From a virus (Duplodnaviria; Caudoviricetes), in IMG/VR virus record IMGVR_UViG_3300005545_000008, positions 7,529-71,528 of that record: a stretch of DNA of 64,000 bases. One strand, 5' to 3'. Shown in pieces: positions 1 through 16,579 of the stretch. A program made the translations under genes and the position numbers. Positions within the stretch are counted from its first letter, which is position 1, and every line of letters starts with the position of its first letter. The notes below the pieces were generated by a model. That model saw nothing but the letters and a program-made list of their open reading frames with translations. It was not told the origin of the DNA and ran no database searches.

Positions 1-831
1 AATGAGACGTACGTTGTTTTGAACGAGCACACCGGAGAACAGCTACAGGTCGGTTCAACGTGTCTGAAAGACTTCCTTGGATGGTCTGGCACGGTCGCGT
101 TCCTCACTGATGACGATGTTGAACGTGAAGTCATCGGCTACGTGGGTTCAGGTTCTCCGGTCTACACAACGGAAAGCATTCTCGCCGTTGCTTGGGCCTG
201 CGTGACCACGTTCGGGTACGCCAAAGCGCATGAGGACAATCCCACTAAGGCGACTGTCTACACGGTCATTGCCGCCAGAGAAAACCGATACAACCGAGAA
301 CTGAAAGCGCGAATTGCACCTGTCGCCAAGGATGCTGTTCCGATGGCACAGAAGCTCCGTGAATTCATTCTCTCTGATGAATTTGGTCCCGCCAATAACG
401 ACTACGTCCAGAATCTCAAGACGTACTGTGCAGCCAACACGAACACGGCGCGGTCGTTCGGATTTCTCGCAAGCGTGCCACAAGCATACGCACGGCATCT
501 TGAAAAGACTCTCATCAGAGAGCGTGCCAACGCCAACCGAAAGAACGAATGGATTGGCACGCTCAGAAAGCGTCAGACATTCAAGGTCAAGGTTCGGGCC
601 GTCAAGTGGTTGGAAGACTTCTACAGCCCGTACGGTGGCTCTAAGCCCCTCTACACGCTGATCACAGAGGACGGCTACACACTCAAGTGGTTTGCTTCCA
701 ATGACAGCGTGTTGGGAAAGGACGTCACACCGGAAGATCAGGACTTCTTTGACCTGGTTGGAACCGTTGTGAATCATGAGGAGTATGAAGGTTATAAGTC
801 CACTTGTATCAACCGATGCAAGCTTGGCTGA
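1..831 (+). CDS. Hypothetical phage protein, 5'-truncated; probable C-terminal OB-fold-like domain
   Basis: Frame is open from base 1 (NETYVVLNEH...). QVGSTCLKDFLG motif. Beta-rich C-terminus (KRQTFKVKV...LKWFAS...LVGTVVNHEEYEG) resembles OB folds. Confidence 0.75.
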   Translation, partial: NETYVVLNEHTGEQLQVGSTCLKDFLGWSGTVAFLTDDDVEREVIGYVGSGSPVYTTESILAVAWACVTTFGYAKAHEDNPTKATVYTVIAARENRYNRELKARIAPVAKDAVPMAQKLREFILSDEFGPANNDYVQNLKTYCAANTNTARSFGFLASVPQAYARHLEKTLIRERANANRKNEWIGTLRKRQTFKVKVRAVKWLEDFYSPYGGSKPLYTLITEDGYTLKWFASNDSVLGKDVTPEDQDFFDLVGTVVNHEEYEGYKSTCINRCKLG

Positions 832-845
832 CAAAGGATGATGAG

Positions 846-1001
846 ATGAACAACGCTAAGACCTATTCACAGTTCCTCGCTGGTCTCTCGCCGGACGAAC
901 GACGCAAGTACTACGAACGTCCTACCCCGCTGGACAAGCGCATTCCGACCGGGGTCACTGAATGGGACGCGTCGATTGGCCGTCACGTGGTGATCCGCTA
1001 A
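846..1001 (+). CDS. Small hypothetical early protein (51 aa)
   Basis: AAAGGA RBS upstream of ATG 846; codon style matches neighbours. Confidence 0.6.
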   Translation: MNNAKTYSQFLAGLSPDERRKYYERPTPLDKRIPTGVTEWDASIGRHVVIR

Positions 1002-1037
1002 AACAAATGTCCTGGGTATGACGTTAAAAGGCCTAAG

Positions 1038-1125
1038 GGGAAGTTTTATCGCTGGTCGCGATACTCAGCCAAATACGCTGATGGGATATGTGCGCACATA
1101 TCGGGTTCGATTCCCGAACTTCCCA
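1038..1125 (+). ncRNA. Non-canonical type-II tRNA-like cloverleaf (loop CAAATAC, discriminator A, no encoded CCA)
   Basis: Acceptor GGGAAGT/ACTTCCC; D arm TATCGC-TGGTC-GCGATA; TCAGC-CAAATAC-GCTGA; long variable arm TATGT-GCGC-ACATA; T arm TCGGG-TTCGATT-CCCGA. Confidence 0.7.
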
Positions 1126-1146
1126 CTCCCTAAGAAAGGCAAAACA

Positions 1147-1608
1147 ATGCTCACCATCATTGTTACTGACTGCACTACGGGCAAGGTCACCAACGTTCAG
1201 CCGTTGGACAAGTACATGCCGATTCTTGAGGAGTTCGAGGGTTGGTGCACCAGCCTGACTCGCCTTGGCGGCACGCACGGCCGAGTGACGCTCTGGGACA
1301 CCGAAACGAACATGTCTCAAGGCTCACGTGAGATCAACGTCCCGCGTACGGACATCCGGACCGCCACGACGGATGAGATCCGCACTTGGGTTCGTGATGA
1401 GTGTGGTGAGGAGTACCGCGACAACAAAAAGATTGTTGCCATTAAAAAGACTCGCACGGCGTTCGGCGTCGAACGTGGTTTTGTGCAGCTGGGTTTGAGG
1501 GACGCAAAGGAACACGTTGAAGCCGTGTTCGCGGAACTAGACCAGGAAAAGAAGAAGCTCGCACCGTGCGGTTCACCGAATTGCACTGATATGAATTGCG
1601 AATACTAG
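1147..1608 (+). CDS. Early protein with ribosomal protein bL12 (L7/L12) C-terminal-like domain
   Basis: AGAAAGG RBS before ATG 1147. NKKIVAIKKTRTAFG...LGLRDAKEHVE matches the bL12 CTD pattern KIxxIKxxRxxxGLGLxEAKxxVE. Confidence 0.6.
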   Translation: MLTIIVTDCTTGKVTNVQPLDKYMPILEEFEGWCTSLTRLGGTHGRVTLWDTETNMSQGSREINVPRTDIRTATTDEIRTWVRDECGEEYRDNKKIVAIKKTRTAFGVERGFVQLGLRDAKEHVEAVFAELDQEKKKLAPCGSPNCTDMNCEY

Positions 1609-1637
1609 AAAGACGTCGGGCGGACGTTAAGCGCCAC

Positions 1638-1717
1638 GGGCCGTGTCTTGGGCACAAAGTCAATTCTCATTCCGGAATGGGATTGCACTTAGAGAGGTTC
1701 GATACCTCTACGGTCTA
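1638..1717 (+). ncRNA. Second tRNA-like element (acceptor plus T arm, no anticodon loop)
   Basis: GGGCCGT(1638-44)/ACGGTCT(1710-16) with two G-U pairs; AGAGG-TTCGATA-CCTCT T arm; central long hairpin CAATTCTCATT-CCGG-AATGGGATTG. Confidence 0.5.
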
Positions 1718-2124
1718 CTACCTCCGCATTCCCCGCCAAGAGTGGCCGGGCAACCAATATAAGTCGGAGAGGATTAAGACATGCGACAATGGAACTTTTA
1801 ATTAAGGGGAGTTGGCGGTTATATCAGGCTATTGGTACGTCTGATAGCGAGACCAATTCATTACCCGGTTCTGGCACCTCATGTCTGTGAATCCATTATG
1901 AATAGGGCAGCATTGAATCTGACTGGATTGCGTTTGAACCACGCTGACCAATAGTTACCCCTCGCAATAGTGGGCGGTATCAGTAGGGGCAAAGCATGGG
2001 AGCATGTGAAGGGTTGACGATTCATTGCTAACCTAGGCCATTTGAAATAGGGAAAGCTAAAGGGATTATGACTAGTGTTGGCCACACAGTCCCCTGAACC
2101 TTTCCCGCTTACTTTGGAGTCACA

Positions 2125-2505
2125 ATGTCGGGAAGCAAGATTACCCCGCAAGACACCTACAGCATTTTCGTTGGTTCGGGTGCGCTCTCCTACCCTTGGT
2201 ACGAGATGATCGCATTCAACAACATGGGTGAGGACATTGACCCGCTTGACGATTGGTCAGTGACTTTCGAACTTCCTAGTGAGTTCGCAGAGAATGAGGG
2301 GAAGCGCTACACGCTGAGCCACGCCCTGATTATGCGCACGGTTCACAAGATTGTTCGCGGAGCACAAAAGGGAATCAGTCTCAATGGCGAGGTAAGGAAG
2401 GAATGCCGCGCTATGCTGAGAGATGTTGAGGATTGCGACTTTGACGCGGGAACGGCTGATTGTGTTCTACAGGCGGCGGCGTTCGATGACGTCATCTACT
2501 GCTGA
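2125..2505 (+). CDS. Acidic hypothetical early protein (C-terminal DAGTADCVLQAAAFDDVIY motif)
   Basis: GGAG RBS; C-terminal motif type recurs in phage early proteins of unknown function. Confidence 0.7.
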   Translation: MSGSKITPQDTYSIFVGSGALSYPWYEMIAFNNMGEDIDPLDDWSVTFELPSEFAENEGKRYTLSHALIMRTVHKIVRGAQKGISLNGEVRKECRAMLRDVEDCDFDAGTADCVLQAAAFDDVIYC

Positions 2506-2806
2506 GACGTTCGCCCGATATCTGACAATCGCTTTACTACTAAAGAAGAAAAGTAAAGCGATTGTCAGAATCAATGGTCAGTTGTACAACCCAATTGATG
2601 CCGCTAGGCACTATTGCGGTAGCGAGTCCCTGACACGTGCGGGCGTTCTCGCTGACTACACACGCTGGTTGCGTGCTGGAATCAGGTAGTGTCGTTTAGG
2701 AGGCTGTACAGTCCGCAAAGGGGTGTACAGCCGATAGGGGACACGAACCTACCCCTGAACCAATTGATCTTGTTAGAGAGCAACTGAGAGCCCAAAGGGG
2801 ACTATC

Positions 2807-2980
2807 ATGGCACTGTTCAACGTCAAGGTGACCATTGCTGAGACGGGTAAGCCGACCGTTCGCAGGTTCGAGGGTGACGACGTGCACGCGGCTATTGCAT
2901 GGGGTGAGACGCTGGGACGGGTGAGTGAGGTCGCTCAGGTTCTCGCCGTCTCGCGTACCACGCTTGAAATCATCGCTTAA
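2807..2980 (+). CDS. Small hypothetical protein (57 aa; absent from ORF track)
   Basis: AAAGGGG RBS, ATG 2807, MALFNVKVTIAETGK..., TAA 2980. Confidence 0.65.
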   Translation: MALFNVKVTIAETGKPTVRRFEGDDVHAAIAWGETLGRVSEVAQVLAVSRTTLEIIA

Positions 2981-2984
2981 GGTG

Positions 2985-3230
2985 ATGGATGCAAACAGCC
3001 TAGATCTTTGGCTGAGATGGAATGAGCGTGTGGAATCGGTGCTCATGCATCACAAACCACACACACGAGATGAATTGGACTTGCGTCTAGGGCAAAAGCT
3101 TTTCAACATGCTTGGCGCTTACAGTCCGAATGTTCAAGACAAAATCAGGGGATCAATTGTGGACCCGTTTCACAATGATGATATGGTTCCCGCATTTCTT
3201 GAAAAGGTGGATGAACTGTGGATGCTCTGA
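2985..3230 (+). CDS. Hypothetical protein
   Basis: AAGGTG RBS, ATG 2985 five bases after the previous stop. Confidence 0.65.
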   Translation: MDANSLDLWLRWNERVESVLMHHKPHTRDELDLRLGQKLFNMLGAYSPNVQDKIRGSIVDPFHNDDMVPAFLEKVDELWML

Positions 3231-3448
3231 CTCAGGTTGAGTGGACTGTTGCTGGGGAAGTCATTGACGAGTTTGGCGCTGAGCTGGACGGCATTGTCAA
3301 GAACGGCACCTACGTTGACACCACTTCTGCTGGTTTCCTCATGCACTTCACAAACGCGTTGATTGGGCGTATCGACGCTCACCGCGCGGAGGAAAGCGCG
3401 GCATGGGACATGCACAAGAACAAGAACGATCCTGACGATTGGGTCTAA
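3218..3448 (+). CDS. Acidic hypothetical protein
   Basis: Overlaps previous stop; early-gene codon style. Confidence 0.65.
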   Translation: MDALTQVEWTVAGEVIDEFGAELDGIVKNGTYVDTTSAGFLMHFTNALIGRIDAHRAEESAAWDMHKNKNDPDDWV

Positions 3449-3551
3449 GGAGTCCTGTAGTTAGGCAGACTGGGCAGTCTCAATGAAAGTGATTGGGACT
3501 GTCACAGTCACTGGGTTACAGGAACCCTTTTAAATAACAAAGGATAATGAA

Positions 3552-3935
3552 ATGGCTAAGCTTTCTGACGCGCAGATCAACGCTCTCAAGTTCTATGCGA
3601 ACAATGAGGGTGAGCAGCCGCGAAAGAACACGCGTGATGCCCTTCTCAAGAACGGCTTTCTGACTGATGACAACGCTCTGACTGATGACGCTTTCGACGC
3701 GCTTGGTTGGGAGCGTCCGAGCACGGTTGTTGATGAGATCACCGAACTGTTGAGCACGAACCCTTGGGACGCTGAGATCACGCTCCCTGCTGGTTGGGAC
3801 ATGCGCAAGCGCAACCGCGCGGCATGGGAGGGTCTGACTCAGGAGGAGATCAACGCGGACATCGCTACGGCACGTCCGGTTGCGAACCGTTCAGACATCC
3901 GTTCGGGCAACGTTCTCAAGTCCAAGCACTTCTAA
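3552..3935 (+). CDS. Hypothetical protein, possible N-terminal winged-helix-like domain
   Basis: AAAGGA RBS; LSDAQINAL...NTRDALLKNGFL pattern. Confidence 0.7.
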   Translation: MAKLSDAQINALKFYANNEGEQPRKNTRDALLKNGFLTDDNALTDDAFDALGWERPSTVVDEITELLSTNPWDAEITLPAGWDMRKRNRAAWEGLTQEEINADIATARPVANRSDIRSGNVLKSKHF

Positions 3936-3997
3936 TCGCCCACAAACCAATCAATCAATGACCGGTAAATAACCGGTTCCGTTAAAGGAGAAATGAA

Positions 3998-4729
3998 ATG
4001 TCTGAGACCACTGCTGTTGAGACCCCCGCCGTTGTTGCTGTTGAGACCCCAGCAGTTCGGGTCATCAACATCACCTCAAAGGAGGAGTTCGTCAAGGTCG
4101 CGAGCGAATACGGAATCAAGGTCGGTGAGCGTGGCAATCTTCCCCGTCGTGCCCTGTTCGCTGCTGTTCTGTCGGACATCGTTGACGGAAAGGTCAAGCT
4201 CATCCCCACGGGCTACCTTTCGCCGGACGTGCAGAACAAGACTCCGCGTGAGGCAAAGGTCAAGCCCGTTGTTTCCTACGTGATCACTTACAAGATGGTT
4301 GCGGATGGTGCTCCGTCTGGTGATGACCTCACGCTGTCTCTGACGGAGAACGAAGTTCGTTCCTACCTGCCTCATGTCAAGGGTCAGGTGTCCGCCGCAT
4401 ACGCAACGATGGTTCTTGCCCTGTTCCACAGTGAGGAGAGCACGTCTGTTGCGTCGGTGCTCAAGTACGCTGTGAGTGATGTGGAGCGTGTGGAGTCGTT
4501 CCCCGTCTCTGAGAGCGTCGCAGAGACCACGGAAGAGGCTCCCAAGGGTGATGACACTCAGGAGACGAACACGGACGCTGACAAGACTCCTGAGACCGTG
4601 GAAGAGGTGCACGCGTCGGAAGAGATGATCAACGCTGCCATCGCCGCCGGTGAGGAGGCAGCCAAGGCTGCTACCAAGCCTGCCGCCAAGCCGCGTGCGT
4701 CGCGCAAGACTGTCAAGGCGAACGCCTGA
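3998..4729 (+). CDS. Lsr2-like DNA-binding protein with acidic linker and basic AK/P-rich tail
   Basis: AAAGGAG RBS. EFVKVASEYGIKVGERGNLP resembles the Lsr2 CTD (...GxxVxxRGRIP); tail AAKAATKPAAKPRASRKTVKA. Confidence 0.6.
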   Translation: MSETTAVETPAVVAVETPAVRVINITSKEEFVKVASEYGIKVGERGNLPRRALFAAVLSDIVDGKVKLIPTGYLSPDVQNKTPREAKVKPVVSYVITYKMVADGAPSGDDLTLSLTENEVRSYLPHVKGQVSAAYATMVLALFHSEESTSVASVLKYAVSDVERVESFPVSESVAETTEEAPKGDDTQETNTDADKTPETVEEVHASEEMINAAIAAGEEAAKAATKPAAKPRASRKTVKANA

Positions 4730-4743
4730 TAGTTGTTGAACTT

Positions 4744-4781
4744 TGAGGGAGGAGCGCTAAGACAGGCTCCTCCCTCATTGT
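4744..4781 (+). terminator. Terminator-like hairpin
   Basis: 12-bp perfect stem TGAGGGAGGAGC/GCTCCTCCCTCA, loop GCTAAGACAG, followed by TTGTT. Confidence 0.65.
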
Positions 4782-4823
4782 TGAGCAATTCATGAGGAAT
4801 TGTCAAAAGGAAAGAGATTAAAA

Positions 4824-5075
4824 ATGAATGGCACTGTTTCTGACACGTTCACCATTCAGTACGATTTTGGTATTGAGGGGGCGACAGAGGAAACGGCACG
4901 GTTCGCAGAAGTGTGGGACGGACCCATCATCATTGCTACTTTGATGCGAAAGGGTGGTGATGAGTGGTTGATTGATCATGTTGACACTGACTACGTGGAG
5001 TCGGACCACATCGCAGACGACTACGCAACTGTTGCTGAGTTCGTCGCTTTCATTCATGAGGAGTTGAACGCATGA
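4824..5075 (+). CDS. Acidic hypothetical protein
   Basis: AAAGGAAAG RBS, ATG 4824; ATGA overlap with next gene. Confidence 0.65.
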   Translation: MNGTVSDTFTIQYDFGIEGATEETARFAEVWDGPIIIATLMRKGGDEWLIDHVDTDYVESDHIADDYATVAEFVAFIHEELNA

Positions 5076-5341
5076 ATTACGTTCAAGTAGCGCAGGCTAC
5101 ACGCTGTCATGTTGGAAACAGATTCTTTCTTCAAGCTCAAGCGCAACAAATTGAAGTTCATAGGCACACACGCTCTCTCAACAGTGCCATTGAACACTCA
5201 CGTTTCAGGTTCATTCCCATCAATCGAACAAGGCTTGAGAACGCTAAGGCGGAAGTCAAGAAACTGATTTCATTGTTTGAAGCTCACATGAGTGAGTGTG
5301 ACCGTTGTGCACCTATGAACAAGGTTTTGGAGACGGTGTGA
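5072..5341 (+). CDS. Hypothetical protein
   Basis: ATGA-coupled; HxxxCxxC near the C-terminus. Confidence 0.65.
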   Translation: MNYVQVAQATRCHVGNRFFLQAQAQQIEVHRHTRSLNSAIEHSRFRFIPINRTRLENAKAEVKKLISLFEAHMSECDRCAPMNKVLETV

Positions 5342-5544
5342 ACGCACAGACGGAAAAGGAAACGCGGGACTACTTCCTAAAAGCGTTGTATTACGCATGG
5401 GGTAGGCAGGATGCGGGGGCTGATGTAAACGCTATAGCTTTCGCCAACTGTTACCGTGACAACGCGGCATGTGGACGTGTCATTGGGGTCAAAGACTCCT
5501 TTGACATGTTCATGAATGGCAAAAGAGATTTCAGGCGCGACTAG
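5338..5544 (+). CDS. Hypothetical protein
   Basis: GGAG RBS; GTGA coupling with upstream stop. Confidence 0.6.
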   Translation: MNAQTEKETRDYFLKALYYAWGRQDAGADVNAIAFANCYRDNAACGRVIGVKDSFDMFMNGKRDFRRD

Positions 5545-5577
5545 GAATAAAGTTTTTCAAAGTTACTCCATTTGCGC

Positions 5578-5607
5578 TTGCATAAAGGCTCTGTAGTTGG
5601 ATAAGCT
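5578..5607 (+). promoter_or_regulatory. Housekeeping-sigma-like promoter overlapped by an 11-bp inverted repeat
   Basis: TTGCAT-18-TAAGCT; CTCTGTAGTTG(5589-99)/CAACTACAGAG(5616-26) brackets the -10. Confidence 0.5.
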
Positions 5608-5640
5608 CATGCCAACAACTACAGAGTGAGAGGCCAAACA

Positions 5641-6138
5641 GTGAACAAGGTCAAGATTGTCCAAGCCATTGTGAAGCTCTATTTCATTGGAGCACTGGCA
5701 GGCAGTTTTGTTCACATCATTTCCGCCGCTGAAAAGCTGGGACTGAGTGGCTGGGAGTCATGGTCAACCCCATTCATGATCGACGGGTTGGCACTGATTG
5801 GGATGGTGCTCCGATCAGAAGACTTCTCAGAAGCAACCCGCAAGCTGGGTTTCCGAGTCCAAATGGTGATGGGAGCGTTCAGCCTGGTTGCCAACGTCTA
5901 CGCGGCTAAGAGCATCGGCGGAGTGATTTACGGAGTCATGATCGTTGCTCTCTACATTGCCGCTGAGTGGATCACCGACCGGGTGGAAAGCTCACAGGTA
6001 GACAGAGACCGTGAAACGGCAGTCAAGCGCAGTGAGGCAGCACAGAAAGCGGCACAGACACGCAAGAGCAATGCACGAAAGGCTAAGGCAGCGCGAACCA
6101 AGCAAATCAACCAACTTGAGAAGCAACTCAAGAGCTAG
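5641..6138 (+). CDS. DUF2637-like multi-pass membrane protein (Spd/spread-like)
   Basis: About 4 TM segments; SFVHI...GLSGWESWSTPFMIDG motif; basic coiled-coil tail; GAGAGG RBS before GTG 5641. Confidence 0.65.
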   Translation: MNKVKIVQAIVKLYFIGALAGSFVHIISAAEKLGLSGWESWSTPFMIDGLALIGMVLRSEDFSEATRKLGFRVQMVMGAFSLVANVYAAKSIGGVIYGVMIVALYIAAEWITDRVESSQVDRDRETAVKRSEAAQKAAQTRKSNARKAKAARTKQINQLEKQLKS

Positions 6139-6144
6139 GCAACC

Positions 6145-6178
6145 AGCCCCCATCGCTTAGACAGGATGGGGGCTTTTG
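6145..6178 (+). terminator. Intrinsic terminator
   Basis: AGCCCCCATC/GATGGGGGCT stem plus TTT; loop GCTTAGACAG. Confidence 0.8.
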
Positions 6179-6282
6179 CATGCCCTTAACAGGGTCTGAG
6201 AGAGCCCTACAGCGTTTTAACGATGCTGCCTAGTGTCAAGACACCCGACAAATATTCGATCTTGTTAGAAAGGCGTACAGAC

Positions 6283-6708
6283 ATGCTTGTCTACGGTGTG
6301 AGCGCTCATGAGGTCAGAACGGCCGTTGAGACTGTCTCAGCTGATTGGGATGACAACGTCGAACTCAAGAGCTTGACGGACATGAGCAACAGCCGTGGTG
6401 GTCGCGCTAGCTATGCGTTGCGTGCTGTCAGTTCGCGCAAGAGTGGTGCACGTCGCAGCCATTCAGGCAGGGCAACTATCGCGTCATGCTGGCACGTTCA
6501 CCGTGATGTGTTGCGCGAGTTGTTCAAGATCAACCCGAATGCCCGTGTGGTGTCTGGTTTGGGTGAGCGAGTTGACGGTAAGTTCAAGCGCACTGTTTAC
6601 AAGGGCAGTGATGGTTTTGAGCGTGACTTCCCCGGTACCGCGTGGATCAACGTTGGTTCTGATTGGTACCCCGCTTACATTGGTCAGCTTTGCGATTGTG
6701 GAGAGTGA
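6283..6708 (+). CDS. Hypothetical protein
   Basis: AGAAAGG RBS, ATG 6283; CWHVH and terminal CDC motifs. Confidence 0.7.
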   Translation: MLVYGVSAHEVRTAVETVSADWDDNVELKSLTDMSNSRGGRASYALRAVSSRKSGARRSHSGRATIASCWHVHRDVLRELFKINPNARVVSGLGERVDGKFKRTVYKGSDGFERDFPGTAWINVGSDWYPAYIGQLCDCGE

Positions 6709-6712
6709 AGAA

Positions 6713-7072
6713 ATGTCTTTCGACATTAACGCGTGGTTGCAAGAGAACGCCGATTACCAGTCTGACGATGTGATGTCAGAAAAGGGTCTTGACTATTTCG
6801 AGATTCTTTTGGTTCTTGGCTACATGGTGGAAAACTGCTATATCAATCCGGTGAGCTACACGGAATGGGACGTTAGCCGTCTCCTGAAAGACCTTTCCTT
6901 TGAGGTTCACGCCACAAAGGAAGCGTATGCAACCAGCGTTTTGGTTGCTCAAGAGGAACGCATTCCTGCCGGGGTTTCAGTGGATTGGAACGCAACGGCC
7001 GACTACTTCCTGACTGATCTTCCTCATTACGAGTTGGAAGATGGCAGGGTGGCTGTGTGGCAGGACAACTAA
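6713..7072 (+). CDS. Very acidic protein resembling the ArdA antirestriction C-terminal domain
   Basis: ATG 6713; roughly 24 D/E versus 6 K/R; VDWNATADYFLTD...ELEDGRVAVW resembles ArdA IDxExxARDL...xDG. Confidence 0.5.
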   Translation: MSFDINAWLQENADYQSDDVMSEKGLDYFEILLVLGYMVENCYINPVSYTEWDVSRLLKDLSFEVHATKEAYATSVLVAQEERIPAGVSVDWNATADYFLTDLPHYELEDGRVAVWQDN

Positions 7073-7193
7073 AAAACTAAGTGCTTAGCGCGTGCGCTCA
7101 TTCAAACGCCTTAAATTAAAAAGCCGAAAAGGCGGGGGCAGGGAATGAGCGTAGGCATAATTGCTTAGCAGACACTTAGAAAGGAAAAGAACA

Positions 7194-7421
7194 GTGAGGC
7201 TACTACCTCAAAAACATCGCATCAGCGTAGAGAAGTGGAAGACACTTTATGAGGACGGTGCACCACTTGATTGCGCGGAAGACAGGATCATCCTTTACCA
7301 CATCGAACACATTTGGAAAGAGGAAGCACGCTACGGTAAAACAGAAGACCTGAAAGCATGGTTGGACAAGATGTCAGAGTGGTACGAATTCTTTACTTCA
7401 AACTCGAATTGGGGCGGGTAA
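7194..7421 (+). CDS. Hypothetical protein
   Basis: GAAAGG RBS before GTG 7194. Confidence 0.6.
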   Translation: MRLLPQKHRISVEKWKTLYEDGAPLDCAEDRIILYHIEHIWKEEARYGKTEDLKAWLDKMSEWYEFFTSNSNWGG

Positions 7422-7424
7422 GAA

Positions 7425-7757
7425 ATGAAGTCTTTCAAATTCGATTACAACAACTATCAAGTGCAATACAACGATGGTGAAGTTGAAATCGAGGAACACG
7501 ACCAATGGGGTACTTATGTTGGAAGCGTGACACTCCCCATGCCTGCCTTACTTGAGATTCACGCTAAGGTGGATGAGTTGTATCCATTCCACAATCCCAG
7601 CTGTAATGAGGTCTCAGCGGCACGCGGGGCGTTAGAGAGGGCTAGGGACGTACGTAACGTAGCCAAGCCAGATGCAGTGTTTGAGGAAGCTCTCAGAGCC
7701 TATATGGACATCACCAGTAGGCATAAGGAAGCGTTTGACTGTCAGATCTTCCACTGA
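7425..7757 (+). CDS. Hypothetical protein, N-terminal domain paralogous to next gene
   Basis: FKFDYNNYQVQYNDGEVEI...GSVTLPM..L.EI..KVDELY. Confidence 0.7.
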   Translation: MKSFKFDYNNYQVQYNDGEVEIEEHDQWGTYVGSVTLPMPALLEIHAKVDELYPFHNPSCNEVSAARGALERARDVRNVAKPDAVFEEALRAYMDITSRHKEAFDCQIFH

Positions 7758-7769
7758 AAGGGAAGTGAA

Positions 7770-8150
7770 ATGTACGGCGAATTCAAATTCAGCCACAAGA
7801 ACTATGACATCGAATGGAATGCCGGAGAGCTGACCATTATCGAGTCATACGACGATACGCACATGGGTACCGTCAAGGTCAGCATGAATGACCTGCGAGA
7901 CATCTACCGAAAGGCTGATGACCTTTACAGCTCTTTTGAGCTTTCGCCGGGGGATAGAGTGGTGTTGTCTGATGAGTACCTTTCCAATGGTGGAACAATC
8001 GTCAACCGGTACCGCAATACCATTGGTGTAGTAGAAGAAGTCTTGACGGAATGGGAAGAGAAAGACCCTATCTGCTGGGACTTCCATATCAGGTTCGGAA
8101 ACAATGAGTATTCCAGTGGGGTGCATTGGGGAGATGTAAGGAAGATCTAG
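7770..8150 (+). CDS. Hypothetical protein, shared N-domain plus SH3/KOW-like C-domain
   Basis: FKFSHKNYDIEWNAGELTI...GTVKVSM..L.DI..KADDLY then LSPGDRVVL...IGVVEEV. Confidence 0.7.
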   Translation: MYGEFKFSHKNYDIEWNAGELTIIESYDDTHMGTVKVSMNDLRDIYRKADDLYSSFELSPGDRVVLSDEYLSNGGTIVNRYRNTIGVVEEVLTEWEEKDPICWDFHIRFGNNEYSSGVHWGDVRKI

Positions 8151-8350
8151 ATAGTGCATAACTAACATATAGGTAGGGTGCCTATATGCACTATGACATC
8201 AAAATAAAGCACTAAATATGTAAACTAACACGTGTAAGGTTAAATTTAATTTTGGAGAAAACATGGTCTGACCTGCGCAAATAAATAAAAATATTGTGAC
8301 GAAACTCCAAATAAAAGCCAAAAAAGTCAAAGAAAAGAGAAAAAAGAGAA

Positions 8351-12631: not shown

Positions 12632-13076
12632 TCAAAGGCTCCTTTGTGACATCAACTTTCGCGGGGAACGGAACTCTTACTGGTTGCCATCTAGGACTTA
12701 CAGGAACCTTATCAAGCCAAGGATAGACAGCCCACTGATCCCATGTAGCAGTAAGAGTGATCTTCTGTTTTACATATTTCACTGGCCATTTTTTGACAAT
12801 CCAACGCATAAACCATGTATCAGCATACATGTCTTTGAAAAACTGCCATGGATTCTTTGGAGTATTCAATACTTCTGTTCTTGTCTCAGTAAATGATGGA
12901 AGCTTTTTACCTAGAACCCTCGCATTAAGTTTATACAGAGATTGATCTCTAAGAAAAGACCAAGAATCTTTTACTATTGATTGCTCATACGTAACCCCTG
13001 GAAGCATTTCATTTTGAACGTACCTCGCTTCTTGAAATTGCAACCATTCAAAAATTTCTTCTTTAAAATAATCCAT
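12579..13076 (-). CDS. Hypothetical protein
   Basis: ATG 13076 in TAATG overlap with the exoribonuclease stop. Confidence 0.65.
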   Translation of the reverse strand: MDYFKEEIFEWLQFQEARYVQNEMLPGVTYEQSIVKDSWSFLRDQSLYKLNARVLGKKLPSFTETRTEVLNTPKNPWQFFKDMYADTWFMRWIVKKWPVKYVKQKITLTATWDQWAVYPWLDKVPVSPRWQPVRVPFPAKVDVTKEPLSEPEKSESRASEESSKS

Positions 13077-13603
13077 TATTTGTATGTTTCCCAAACTCTC
13101 TTGTTCCACTTTGCATCATACAAAGCGTGATGTTCGATTTCTGGTTTGAAATCAATTTTTCTATCTTTGATAATTTCTGTCTTCAAATCATGAGAAAACA
13201 TCGGAATAGGTTGAGGCAGTTTGATCATTGGTCCAAAAATCTGAGCGAGTGCTACATGATCATAAGATACATAATAGCCCCAAAGTTCTACATGCTTTCT
13301 TTCGAAATATGTCCCACCATCTGAAATGAAATCGAGAACGTGTCCTCCCCAATTTTCGTAATCAACTCCATATCTATAAATGTCTTCTTGAGTGATGTGA
13401 TCGCACACATTTACACAAAGCCAATTTGTTAAAACGGATGGATGCCCTCTCCATTCATATCCTTCTAAATCAATATAGGATTGCATGTACCCCCTATTGA
13501 TTAAATATAAATCGCGGCCGTCTTCCGATGTCATTCCGAGCGAAATTGGAATAATTGTTGTTCCATCTTCCTCAAATTCTAAGTCATAAAAATATCTCTG
13601 CAT
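13076..13603 (-). CDS. DEDD 3'-5' exoribonuclease, RNase AS/Rv2179c-like
   Basis: YFYDLEF...ISLGM..EDGR...WGYYVSYDHV.L.QIFGPMI.LP..IPMF..DL...EHHALYDAKW; GAGGAG RBS before ATG 13603. Confidence 0.88.
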   Translation of the reverse strand: MQRYFYDLEFEEDGTTIIPISLGMTSEDGRDLYLINRGYMQSYIDLEGYEWRGHPSVLTNWLCVNVCDHITQEDIYRYGVDYENWGGHVLDFISDGGTYFERKHVELWGYYVSYDHVALAQIFGPMIKLPQPIPMFSHDLKTEIIKDRKIDFKPEIEHHALYDAKWNKRVWETYK

Positions 13604-13683
13604 TGCGCTCCTCGCGTGTATGCGCTGCCTGGTGCTCGTCCGCACACCCGATAGCGCAGTCGTATAATTGTTATTTTCTGTTA

Positions 13684-13800
13684 GGGGTGACGTCACCCTC
13701 AGTTTTTATAGGCTTTTCATGCGTCACCCCCAGGTGACACGTCGGGTGACATGCTATTTTCCTGGGGGTGACAACAAGGGTGACGTCGGGTGACGTCACC
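13684..13800. repeat. clt-like repeat array directly after the traB-like stop
   Basis: 9 copies of GGTGAC/GTCACC in 116 nt (five exact GGGTGAC at 13685, 13744, 13766, 13778, 13788); GC-rich island in AT-rich DNA. Confidence 0.8.
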
Positions 13801-13801
13801 A

Positions 13802-15664
13802 TCACAGCACTATCGTATAGGTGAAATCATCCTTTGTCAAGGACCCATCGGCTACCAATTTACCTAGCTGCTTATGCAACCATGCTCGTGATCTACCTGT
13901 TACAGTCAATACGTCTGATAGGTCGGGTGCATTGAATTGCATGACTCCAGATTCCTTAAATTCTGATATGCGTTCTTTAAGAACTTTGAGTGCTTCATCT
14001 GAAGCCATCTCTGTTTCTGCTTCATCAAATTTTAAGAAAACATTTTCAAACTGAGATTCCAATTCTTTTAATTCCTCTATCTCTATTACTATATCTTCTT
14101 TAAAGTCGTCATCTTCGACATCAACAATATGTGTTGGTTTAACAACAGTTTCAGACTTTTTACTAGCCTCGAATATATCTGCTAGACTTTCCATTGTAAT
14201 TGGATCAATCGGTTCCATCTTATGAGCATTTGCTGCGTCATAAAGTTGTTGATCTGTTATCAAAGAGCACCTGAGTGCCTCTGTCCACATTTCTTGATCA
14301 ACTTCTGGATGAACCAAATACGCATATCCAGGCTTACTATTGCGCCATACAGATGGATCTGCACCAGCATCTACAACGTCATCAGGGAGCGCAAATTGCG
14401 CATCTGCGATATCTTGAACACCAAAACACATAACAGCTGAGAATTGTGCTCTAGCTGCTGTATCAATTGCTACATAACTTGCTCTTTGAAGAGAAGCAGT
14501 AATTGCAATCCCAACAGAACGTGCCGTCTCCATCATTTTGATGAAGGCTGGATTATTGGCGATAAGCCCTGATGCCTCTTCAATATGAACATACAAGAAT
14601 GTAAGTCCTGATTCTTCGTCCCATTTAGTCTTATTCATACTACCAAGTTTATCTGCACGATCCTTAATTGTTCTAGCAAATCTCTTGAATAAAGCCTCTG
14701 CAAGTGTTTCTTCTGATATAACTAGATGGATTCCATTTCTTGCAAGATTAAGAGTCTGATTCCCCTTGGTGATATCAATAACAATGAGTGCTGATTTTCT
14801 ATGATTGAAGGCTCTTGCAAATATTACTTTTGCGCCTTCAGATTTACCAGATCCATTCATACCCTGGATTAACATGTGAATACCACCAAGTCGCTCTGAG
14901 TGTAGATTAAATTCAGCTGGATCACCAGTCTCATACTTACCTACAATAAATTTATCATTAGCGCTTGTTCTTTGTGTATCTGGTATATATGGAACTATTT
15001 CATTTAGTAAATCTCTTTTTGTTATTGTGAAATGACCTCGCGATGCATCATTTCTATCTGGTTTTATTTTTACTGCATTTTTTGGAGCCTTGAACAAACT
15101 AGCAAGATGCGTCTTATACTTTTGCGCATCATCAATTGTATTTTTTCCTCTTTTAACTTGGATTATGCCTTTAAATCTATCCTTTGTGTTTTCTAAAATA
15201 GTAGTCTTGGTGTCATCCAAGCCATGATCCTTAAAGAAGTCTCGCATTGGATCATCACGCTTCTCTGATTTAATAGCTCCTCGAATATTCCAAGAGCCAC
15301 AGAGAGCTAGTCCAAACACAAGCCATACGAGCGATACAATTGGATTCCATGGGGCGTATAGAACGGCAAAGCCTAGCCATATGCCTACAGATGCCAACGT
15401 AAATACCGCATGAAATCTTCCAAAATCACGACGGGTTCTAGAGGCACGCCACATAAATATTCCAAGTGAGGCAGTACATGCTAGAACACCAATAACTATC
15501 CAGTTGTAGGGATTATCAAAATAATCAATATGCCCTACCAACCACAAAACGATAGATAGTATCGCTGTTCCTATCCAAGCTAGATATGGTTTTAACAACA
15601 CCATACCGCTTGAGGTAATACTATCTATCGCCTTGTATTTTATACGTTTTGCTAAATAACTCAC
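13802..15664 (-). CDS. traB: TraB-like FtsK/SpoIIIE DNA translocase
   Basis: About 4 N-terminal TM helices; Walker A GMNGSGKS; Walker B YVHIEEA; ARSVGIAITASLQR; C-terminal wHTH (DLSDVLTVTGRSRAWLHKQLGKLVADG). Confidence 0.8.
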   Translation of the reverse strand: MSYLAKRIKYKAIDSITSSGMVLLKPYLAWIGTAILSIVLWLVGHIDYFDNPYNWIVIGVLACTASLGIFMWRASRTRRDFGRFHAVFTLASVGIWLGFAVLYAPWNPIVSLVWLVFGLALCGSWNIRGAIKSEKRDDPMRDFFKDHGLDDTKTTILENTKDRFKGIIQVKRGKNTIDDAQKYKTHLASLFKAPKNAVKIKPDRNDASRGHFTITKRDLLNEIVPYIPDTQRTSANDKFIVGKYETGDPAEFNLHSERLGGIHMLIQGMNGSGKSEGAKVIFARAFNHRKSALIVIDITKGNQTLNLARNGIHLVISEETLAEALFKRFARTIKDRADKLGSMNKTKWDEESGLTFLYVHIEEASGLIANNPAFIKMMETARSVGIAITASLQRASYVAIDTAARAQFSAVMCFGVQDIADAQFALPDDVVDAGADPSVWRNSKPGYAYLVHPEVDQEMWTEALRCSLITDQQLYDAANAHKMEPIDPITMESLADIFEASKKSETVVKPTHIVDVEDDDFKEDIVIEIEELKELESQFENVFLKFDEAETEMASDEALKVLKERISEFKESGVMQFNAPDLSDVLTVTGRSRAWLHKQLGKLVADGSLTKDDFTYTIVL

Positions 15665-16002
15665 TTTATCGTGAAGTCCGGCTTCACTGCTTTCTTTACA
15701 GAAGCAGCCTCGGATAGTTCCATGGCAAAACGATTCTCAAATAGAGTCCAAGTTTTTTGCACACCACCGCCTGCTATTTTAAAGGCTTCAGCGACACCTT
15801 TTAGTGCAGTCGCAACAATTCTTGCTCGTGCAGTGTTTTTGATTCCTTTAACATTAGCCAGCCTTTGCTGTAGCATCTCGGCTGACCATGAGACTTCAGT
15901 GTAGAGGTCATAACACAAAACTTTTAGAGTGTCCAGGTATCTCTTCAGCGCAATATTGTCGCTGAGATCTATCTCTCCCAGTTCATCTATTCTTTTTGAC
16001 AC
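15661..16002 (-). CDS. TraA-like plasmid transfer accessory protein
   Basis: AAGGAGGTG RBS; GTGA coupling to traB; RARIV...LKGVAEA...F...F..EL pattern recalled from actinomycete TraA proteins. Confidence 0.55.
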   Translation of the reverse strand: MSKRIDELGEIDLSDNIALKRYLDTLKVLCYDLYTEVSWSAEMLQQRLANVKGIKNTARARIVATALKGVAEAFKIAGGGVQKTWTLFENRFAMELSEAASVKKAVKPDFTIK

Positions 16003-16026
16003 TTCTTCGTGTCACCTCCTTATGCG

Positions 16027-16055
16027 AGCGTAACATACATGATTATGTATGTCAA
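16027..16055 (-). promoter_or_regulatory. Consensus promoter with palindromic operator for traA-traB
   Basis: TTGACA-17-TACGCT; ACATACAT-N4-ATGTATGT (16033-16052) fills the spacer and overlaps the -35. Confidence 0.75.
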
Positions 16056-16062
16056 CAAATAA

Positions 16063-16377
16063 TTATGTACGTGGTGCTGATATTGGCGTAGCAGGTTTAT
16101 CAGGTAGAACGATGCTCGTGTCTAGGTAGTCAGACGCTTGTCTAGTCTCCAATAACCTCTTACCTTCACGAAGAATATTTACAGCTACCTGATCAATTGT
16201 ATTTAAGTCTGGTATTGTTGAATATTCTGGTAAAACTGTTGTGCCCTTGGACATTTTCGCCCAAAAGAGATTTGTATTAGTCTGATATGATAATTCAACA
16301 GTGTAAACACCTTGATCAACACCTGCTATACGACACCATTCTGATACAACAGCTGGTTTAATTCCATATCTAGGCAT
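16063..16377 (-). CDS. Hypothetical protein
   Basis: Overlaps upstream stop; ends just before the tra promoter. Confidence 0.65.
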   Translation of the reverse strand: MPRYGIKPAVVSEWCRIAGVDQGVYTVELSYQTNTNLFWAKMSKGTTVLPEYSTIPDLNTIDQVAVNILREGKRLLETRQASDYLDTSIVLPDKPATPISAPRT

Positions 16378-16579
16378 CTAGCCACTCCACGAGTGTCAGA
16401 CCATTGTGGCCATGTATTCCTATGGCGTCTTCTATATTTTTCCAGAATACCATTGATGGTCTCTCACCGAGCCACCTTAAAGCCACAGTTCCATCTGTGA
16501 ATTCAACACCTTCTACTACTACACCAGTGCCGGATACTCCACTGACGTCTTCCTTCCTATTTAAAACAAATCTTCTCAA
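16370..16579 (-). CDS. Conserved actinophage hypothetical protein
   Basis: RFVLNR.EDVSGVSGTG.V.EG..F.DG....RW...HGH.G.T family motif. Confidence 0.75.
   Translation of the reverse strand: MRRFVLNRKEDVSGVSGTGVVVEGVEFTDGTVALRWLGERPSMVFWKNIEDAIGIHGHNGLTLVEWLDA

Follow-up and report, generated by a model that had tools for sequence, protein, structure and literature searches.

Can a lytic tailed phage move its genome between host cells without virions? The question is raised by a short locus in a 64,000-nt stretch of viral DNA (the window), which is part of a 71.5-kb IMG/VR virus record rated 52% complete. A first-pass annotation, made from the letters alone, had read this locus as a conjugative transfer module of the Streptomyces plasmid type, composed of a promoter with an operator, traA, traB and a clt-like array of short repeats. 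By homology, the cassette is almost certainly a genuine transfer module of the kind found on Streptomyces plasmids and on AICEs (integrative and conjugative elements of actinomycetes). The boldest reading, with a probability of roughly 0.4, is that a strictly virulent phage has a second, virion-free route, in which its genome would be pumped early through a domesticated TraA-TraB pair and a clt-like array, escaping receptor-level resistance, the suicide of single compartments and the limits of virion diffusion. Coordinates are collected in Table 1; labels of the form L0xx denote related loci, WIN the window phage and G001 a complete relative.

Against the NCBIfam profile NF041214 (plasmid_TraB), the 620-aa product of traB scored 359 bits (E 5e-107), with residues 24-613 aligned to positions 6-625 of 639, while the next best family reached E 6e-4. 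No FtsK model matched at the sequence level, and Pfam gave a weak DUF87/HerA match only. For calibration, the TraB proteins of pSN22, pJV1, pFP3 and the AICE-like locus L011 scored 809, 785, 428 and 423 bits, respectively, and other members of the phage clade 363-446 bits. The "FtsK-like DNA translocase" gp10 of phage Gilgamesh and the FtsK of Bacillus phage Goe8 reached 54 and 58 bits, in the motor core only, and the experimentally proven Tra of pIJ101 gave no match. The 620-aa protein misses the equivalog cut-off of 800 bits, but this cut-off is very narrow, as pJV1 TraB itself scores 784.5. By tblastn, 52 actinomycete plasmids were matched, with 27 of the matches covering 80% of the length or more; pSN22 and pJV1 TraB aligned over 91-99% of the length, and pFP3 TraB was also a full-length match. 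Among 50,697 phage records, only motor-core matches were obtained, none better than E 1e-3. No PDB entry was retrieved in a sequence search with TraB, and the PADLOC defense-system models, which were also considered, gave only generic matches to the HerA or mad8 ATPase core.

In a quick maximum-likelihood tree (IQ-TREE, 46 rows, short search, SH-aLRT support only), the 20 TraB proteins of the phage clade were monophyletic (100) and nested among actinomycete TraBs beside the AICE-type proteins (96). A branch with a support of 100 split this whole group from E. coli FtsK, Goe8 FtsK and Gilgamesh gp10. Judged from the profile, the alignments and the tree, the 620-aa protein is a full-length TraB of a lineage distinct from the "FtsK-like" proteins of phages. 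The identification as a plasmid TraB in the first-pass annotation is therefore borne out, and in the comparison with FtsK that it had proposed as a check, the ATPase grouped with TraB and not with a non-TraB FtsK clade.

The architecture agrees with the same annotation, which had described an FtsK-type ATPase with N-terminal transmembrane (TM) helices, Walker A and B motifs and a C-terminal winged helix. Four TM segments were predicted at residues 22-127, and the Walker A motif GMNGSGKS (268-275) and the acidic pair E362/E363 are invariant across 38 homologues. The AF2 model (pLDDT 82) comprises four N-terminal membrane helices, a small β domain, a RecA-type motor and a disordered linker (504-549), followed by an H-b-H-H-b-b domain (residues 555-618) that reached a pLDDT of 94 when folded alone. 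The top Foldseek matches of the whole model were the FtsK motor structures 6T8O, 6T8B and 2IUS (E about 1e-16). The isolated C-terminal domain retrieved only generic winged-helix DNA-binding neighbors at weak E values (0.02 or higher), with no specific link to FtsK gamma.

The 113-aa gene lies directly upstream of traB and is translationally coupled to it, its open reading frame (ORF) overlapping traB in GTGA as first described. Its product matched NCBIfam NF041213 (plasmid_TraA) with E 6e-7 and 29.7 bits, below the cut-off of 80, over positions 52-149 of the 165-position model. Homologues from phage L010, the AICE-like L011 and pFP3 gave E 7e-10, 5e-9 and 4e-6, and TraA homologues bear a TraA-like match to Pfam PF28214 in precomputed annotation. 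Although its own profile match is weak, these matches and the position support the earlier assignment of the protein as TraA-like.

The third component is the repeat array. Published clt loci consist of 7-9 bp repeats clustered next to the 3' end of tra or running into it, and Tra binds them (PMC3583192, PMC4447253). Several repeats of this size stand beside the 3' end of the phage traB as well: nine GTCACC(C)/GGTGAC units, six in the direction of traB and three inverted; each end carries a palindrome of 12-14 bp. Of the window's ten GTCACCC sites, seven lie within 110 bp (13685-13794); 3.85 sites would be expected in the whole window, and no shuffle reached ten. The 12-mer palindrome GGTGACGTCACC has two copies, both in the array, with 0.01 expected. 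In an unbiased k-mer cluster scan the array ranked first in the window, and in each related locus no 7-mer was more clustered than the array word. Beyond the array, GTCACC is about as frequent as expected by chance and shows no clear polarity, and on these grounds a polarized, KOPS-like distribution of the word was rejected.

Array and traB are conserved together in the phage clade. The ten phage loci, whose TraB proteins are 42-92% identical, have six to nine TGT[C/T/A]ACC units downstream of traB, mostly in its direction. The distance to the traB stop varies (Table 1), and the gap is a recurrent insertion point for HNH/NUMOD4 or GmrSD_C-type nuclease genes (L004, L007, L024, L005, L025, L029), presumably homing endonucleases; in L029, the inserted genes encode a GmrSD_C/HNH-type nuclease and a protein with a weak HAD-like match. 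The AICE-like L011, whose TraB is a near neighbor of the phage clade, carries GTCACAGCC/GTCACACCC repeats directly after traB. Given this conservation, and the proven clt repeats of pSN22 and pJV1 in the same place, the clt-like character proposed by the first-pass annotation stands, and the array is probably a docking site for TraB, possibly with a second role in transcription.

The best-surviving alternative, which we regard as unlikely, concerns this array. It might be mainly transcriptional, serving as the terminator of traAB and/or as the operator or promoter of the following exonuclease operon, and be bound by another regulator instead of TraB. The first palindrome, with its run of T's, scores as terminator-like, and the transcript of the array would fold strongly (z -7.6). 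A conserved tail, composed of GGTCTGACC, an AT-rich stretch, an inverted GGTGACA, the word TACGACTGC and a GC-rich leader, runs from the array into the ribosome-binding site (RBS) of the next gene. In five of the ten loci the array is parted from traB by 246-320 nt or 0.65-1.3 kb while the tail into the next gene is always kept, so that it may equally belong to the control region of that gene; in L005, L025, L026 and L029 the distance to traB is 0.65-1.3 kb and the next gene follows the array directly. These gaps are, on the other hand, explained by the inserted HNH or GmrSD-type nuclease genes, and L010 keeps its array at the traB stop, with the exonuclease gene 1.9 kb away. Moreover, an unrelated AICE of 71% GC (L011) has the same motif family right after traB, and the proven clt repeats of pSN22 and pJV1 occupy the equivalent position (PMC3583192). 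The mix of orientations also varies among the relatives (6+/3-, 7+/1-, 5+/0-), so that the array has no conserved RNA fold. A TraB docking site thus remains the preferred reading of the array.

Upstream of traA, the promoter claim held in part. A promoter and a palindrome are present as described, but the word "consensus" does not hold and "operator" was not confirmed. The -10 hexamer matches TATAAT at only 3/6 positions, so that the site is no textbook consensus promoter; it fits the actinobacterial TANNNT form, with a TG one base upstream, and a generic promoter scan did not list it. The -35, the -10 (TGTTACGCT) and the RBS (AGGAGG, 16020-16015, minus strand) are kept in L002, L003, L004, L005 and L007. 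The spacer holds an 8+8 palindrome, ACATACAT-N4-ATGTATGT (16052-16033), which is genome-specific and absent from the relatives that retain these elements. Because the palindrome is not conserved and neither the window record nor G001 has a TraR-type repressor, the operator reading is weak. In a lytic phage, where the toxicity of TraB is irrelevant, a constitutive early promoter would be fitting. Separately, the RBS and start region of traA (16000-16020, minus strand) reads AGGAGGTGACAC-N6-GTGTCA. The array word (GGTGACA) is found there once, together with a short inverted repeat across the start codon. This arrangement is kept in four relatives, with L005 as an exception, and may reflect autoregulation or be a mere by-product of the Shine-Dalgarno sequence and codons.

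The carrier is a tailed phage. The window encodes a ribonucleotide reductase, an endolysin, a portal, a protease and capsid proteins; a 2232-aa ORF occupies the tape-measure position, and the leftward arm carries genes for ThyX and HNH proteins. The portal shares 46-49% identity with the portals of the Streptomyces BE-cluster phages Karimac, Tomas, StarPlatinum and Coruscant, to which the phage is distantly related, and the gene order is the same as in that cluster. Close relatives lie on contigs of 132-140 kb, contigs of the clade turn up in several metagenomes, and the clade as a whole has genomes of about 135-140 kb with 37-42% GC (39% in the window phage). Its complete member G001 (132 kb, with terminal repeats and a completeness rating of 100%) carries WhiB, a gene that marks actinobacteria and their phages. 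A tyrosine integrase, a serine integrase, a large serine recombinase, ParA and a GntR regulator were looked for in G001 and not found; likewise, no tyrosine or serine integrase, ParA or GntR was found in the window record, which is 52% complete. The earlier statement that the window has no integrase thus extends to the record and to G001. Given the portal and gene order, the WhiB gene and the lack of lysogeny genes in G001, the best reading of the carrier is a virulent siphophage of an actinomycete, belonging to a low-GC sister lineage of the BE cluster. Of the features that mark a self-transmissible plasmid or AICE (its own Rep or integrase, a GntR-type TraR and an spd operon), neither an integrase nor a GntR-type TraR was found in the two records, and no spd operon adjoins traB.

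Several further observations concern this phage and its kin. The rightward block of small genes at window positions 1-8200, which continues upstream in the record, has 50-57% GC, as against 37-41% elsewhere in the phage. The possibility that this 52% GC block is a host flank or an assembly chimera was rejected: L007, a 92% relative, has the same block at 77-89% nucleotide identity and 49-57% GC, so that it is native to the phage. Within it, ARAGORN predicted an 89-nt tRNA-Ile(AAT) at 1038-1126 (plus strand), overlapping an ORF start. TraB homologues at 23-37% identity also occur on about 27 further viral contigs of 40-87 kb (IMG/VR loci L030-L055). Many of these are from isolate actinobacterial genomes, and several measure 79-87 kb and may be plasmid-prophages (pZL12 is about 90 kb and pSLE1 86 kb).

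The traA-traB cassette was not found in the BE-cluster phages searched. A history in which the low-GC clade acquired it once, at its base, is the simplest. Relative to four relatives, dN/dS was 0.06-0.12 for traB and 0.05-0.15 for traA; the cassette is under purifying selection (dN/dS about 0.1) and has probably been retained as a working operon of the early arm. The phage TraB clade spans 41-92% identity with a conserved gene order.

We propose the following mechanism. The operon would be transcribed from its host-type promoter, with no TraR present and none needed in a lytic phage. TraB would insert into the membrane by its four N-terminal helices and assemble as an FtsK-like ring, and its winged helix would dock on the GTCACC(C) repeats beside its own gene. 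The motor could then pump the double-stranded DNA (dsDNA) genome of the phage across septal cross-walls into neighboring compartments, or across contacts between hyphae, so that fresh cytoplasm would become infected without virions. TraA, and perhaps a DUF2637 membrane protein encoded elsewhere in the window, may assist. On the sequence evidence, we consider the odds about even that the cassette moves phage dsDNA between hyphal compartments or hyphae. What the sequences show is the homology, the architecture, the place and conservation of the array, the purifying selection and a gene content of virulent type. We infer three steps, namely binding of the array by TraB, the phage origin of the pumped DNA and a resulting spread independent of virions.

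A number of points weigh against this mechanism, in addition to the terminator-like palindrome and the arrays parted from traB described above. The transfer function of the cassette is read from its sequence, the actinomycete host is inferred, and its mycelial growth is assumed. Since a lytic phage kills its compartment in a single cycle, the time for DNA export would be short. Covariation between the recognition helix and the repeat word is no more than hinted at, because the motif family stays almost constant across TraB proteins with identities down to 42%. The residue that follows the SRAWL motif tracks the word loosely: it is His with GTCACC in six loci, and also His in L028, which mixes TGTCACACC and TGTTACACC; it is Arg with TGTAACC (L026) and Tyr with mixed TGTTAC and GTCACC (L029, L025), these changes being few and confounded by phylogeny. 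As to spread proteins, no multi-TM spd-like ORF was found beside traB, DUF2637 was not detected in G001, and in Pfam searches neither pIJ101 SpdB nor the spd ORFs of pSN22 gave a DUF2637 match.

TraB could also act within a single cell, pulling in the rest of the genome after a first step of entry, with loading at the array, or partitioning replicating genomes. In principle, the task would suit an anchored dsDNA pump that loads at a site, and the cassette is placed in the leftward early arm, following a host-type promoter. BE-type phages, moreover, have long terminal repeats and large genomes. Yet the sister BE-cluster phages manage without the cassette, and the gene would need to be expressed from DNA that is already inside. 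All characterized members of the family move DNA between compartments or cells (PMC4447253). We consider intracellular action quite improbable.

We judge as equally improbable that the cassette serves competition, by excluding or hijacking resident conjugative plasmids and AICEs, exporting host or rival DNA, or blocking superinfection at the membrane. Unregulated TraB is toxic in plasmids (the Kil function; PMC4447253), the phage has no TraR repressor, and some neighbors are of an anti-defense type (an Acb5-like gene upstream and homing nucleases). That every relative examined keeps a cognate-looking array in the genome of the phage itself is, by contrast, the hallmark of self-transfer, and TraA is co-conserved with TraB. 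Finally, that the cassette is a selfish or decaying AICE passenger without function for the phage, as the AICE or plasmid TraBs that are its nearest non-phage relatives might suggest, is nearly excluded by the single monophyletic phage clade with 41-92% identity and conserved gene order, the GC content equilibrated to the 39% of the phage, the intact reading frames and motifs, and a dN/dS of about 0.1.

Table 1. Features of the transfer cassette and its neighbors in the window, and placement of the array in ten phage loci
Feature	Position or loci	Strand	Details
Promoter of the traA-traB operon	16027..16055	-	TTGACA 16055-16050, 17-nt spacer, TACGCT 16032-16027
traA-like gene, 113 aa	15661..16002	-	GTG start at 16002; stop overlaps traB start in GTGA
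traB, 620 aa	13802..15664	-	Predicted membrane-anchored FtsK/HerA-type dsDNA translocase with C-terminal winged helix
clt-like array, 117 bp	13684..13800	-	Starts 1 nt after the traB TGA stop
Non-coding tail	13604..13683	-	AT-rich stretch, inverted GGTGACA, unique word TACGACTGC (13656-13664), alternating GC-rich leader, RBS GAGGAG
Rv2179c-like 3'-5' exonuclease	13076..13603	-	Pfam PF16473 E 3.8e-8; phrog_2259 E 8e-37
DUF2637 membrane protein, 170 aa	5626..6138	+	PF10935 E 3.2e-8, 34.1 bits (cut-off 22.8)
Array directly after traB stop	WIN, L022, L023, L027, L028		Offset 2-15 nt
One HNH gene between traB stop and array	L024, L007		Offset 246-320 nt
Two inserted genes between traB stop and array	L026, L025, L029		Offset 0.65-1.3 kb

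Around the cassette, the non-coding tail travels with the array in all relatives, even in L028, where the downstream gene differs. The true start of the exonuclease is probably the ATG at 13603, and this gene is a neighbor, not a part of the transfer module. The word TTATACGACTGC, which is unique in the window, was considered as the start of a T7-type promoter and dropped, since such a match is expected by chance. No known RNA family was found in 13000-16500. Two genes upstream of traA, a 69-aa gene (window 16370-16579, minus strand) matches phrog_7499, and its homologues bear the precomputed Pfam match PF26761 "Acb5"; it shifts relative to traB, being upstream in the window and downstream in L010.

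The DUF2637 membrane protein has four hydrophobic helices and a Lys/Arg-rich tail, and its gene is found in the converging arm of 52% GC, at a distance of 7.7 kb from traB. Homologues (45-99% identity) are borne by contigs of 138,790, 139,472 and 139,779 bp, and TraB homologues lie on contigs of equal sizes; L058 repeats the traB/DUF2637 layout. DUF2637 genes also occur within the transfer modules of pFP3 and L011, while tblastn of the protein against the plasmid and phage collections returned nothing. Since pIJ101 SpdB and the pSN22 spd ORFs lack a DUF2637 match, the protein is not established as an equivalent of SpdB2, and its possible role as a spread-protein analogue is a lead only.

The way in which phages spread through compartmented, multicellular mycelia is poorly understood, and many actinophage "FtsK-like" genes have no assigned role (PMC11536984, 10.1101/2024.02.16.580700, PMC13587820). 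Here, a bona fide plasmid TraB, with a TraA partner and a clt-like site, is under selection in phages without lysogeny genes. Should the cassette carry phage DNA from one compartment or hypha to another, conjugation-type dsDNA transfer would be a route of viral infection, the boundary between lytic phages and conjugative elements would blur, and plaque biology, receptor-loss resistance and abortive infection in Streptomyces-like hosts would need re-reading. With only one promoter, two genes and 120 bp of DNA, the cassette is, in addition, a candidate for a compact tool to mobilize DNA in actinomycetes.

Among known systems, the closest parallel is offered by pSN22 (NC_001425.2) and pJV1 (NC_001759.1), in which a divergent traR, traA and traB are followed, a few nucleotides past the traB stop, by CCGCACA[CG][CG] repeats, the published clt repeats of pJV1 (PMC3583192). 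The phage shares the order promoter, traA, traB and short-repeat array; its TraB and TraA match the same NCBIfam models, and its TraB has the same architecture of membrane anchor, FtsK-like motor and winged helix. The two sides differ in that TraB identity is only 23-25%, the phage TraA is shorter (113 aa), and the phage has neither a divergent GntR-type traR nor an adjacent spd operon. Its repeat word is GTCACC(C), with several inverted copies, instead of CCGCACA[CG][CG], its GC content is 39% as compared to about 70%, and the carrier is a large virulent phage and not a plasmid. Streptomyces plasmids employ such a set to pump dsDNA from hypha to hypha. TraB has been reported to read 8-bp repeats via helix 3 of its winged helix (Vogelmann 2011, as summarized in PMC3583192 and PMC4447253).

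The clt of pWTY27 comprises 7-bp direct repeats (TGACACC, CCCGCCC) and inverted repeats within the last 16 bp of tra and the adjacent 159 bp, and is bound in vitro by Tra (PMC3583192). The phage array resembles it in size, position and mixed orientation, whereas the words differ; for pWTY27, Tra binding and the requirement in cis were shown experimentally, while the phage array is known from its sequence. The motor fold, and a C-terminal winged helix that reads short DNA words, are also shared with FtsK/SpoIIIE (KOPS/SRS, gamma domain), but the FtsK/SpoIIIE words are spread and polarized, whereas those of the phage are clustered in one array. The "FtsK-like DNA translocase" genes annotated in many actinophages, such as Streptomyces phage Gilgamesh (gp10) or Naboo and Mandalore (10.1101/2024.02.16.580700), share the FtsK/HerA-type ATPase core with the phage TraB. 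Gilgamesh gp10 matches it at E 0.2 in the motor core only, scores 54 bits as against 359, and falls with FtsK in the tree.

Our literature search found no paper describing a TraA-TraB-clt set in a virulent phage. Two systems come near to it. As summarized in PMC3583192, PMC4487206 and PMC7157519, pZL12 (Zhong et al. 2010, J Bacteriol 192:3747) is a Streptomyces plasmid-phage with Tra-dependent conjugal transfer; its record was not among the tblastn matches listed from phage records. According to these summaries it likewise joins a tailed-phage genome of an actinomycete to a tra gene used in conjugal transfer, but it is temperate, a circular plasmid prophage of high GC content and roughly 90 kb that carries parAB and whose transfer needs tra and two adjacent genes. 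The phage clade described here, in contrast, has no integrase or ParA and looks virulent. Homologues of SpdB2 on actinophages have, in turn, been proposed to aid the spread of phage DNA (Thoma et al. 2015; PMC4447253). The concept of a phage using conjugative functions therefore has precedents in pZL12 and in these SpdB2 homologues, and what is new here is the apparently strictly lytic nature of the carrier.

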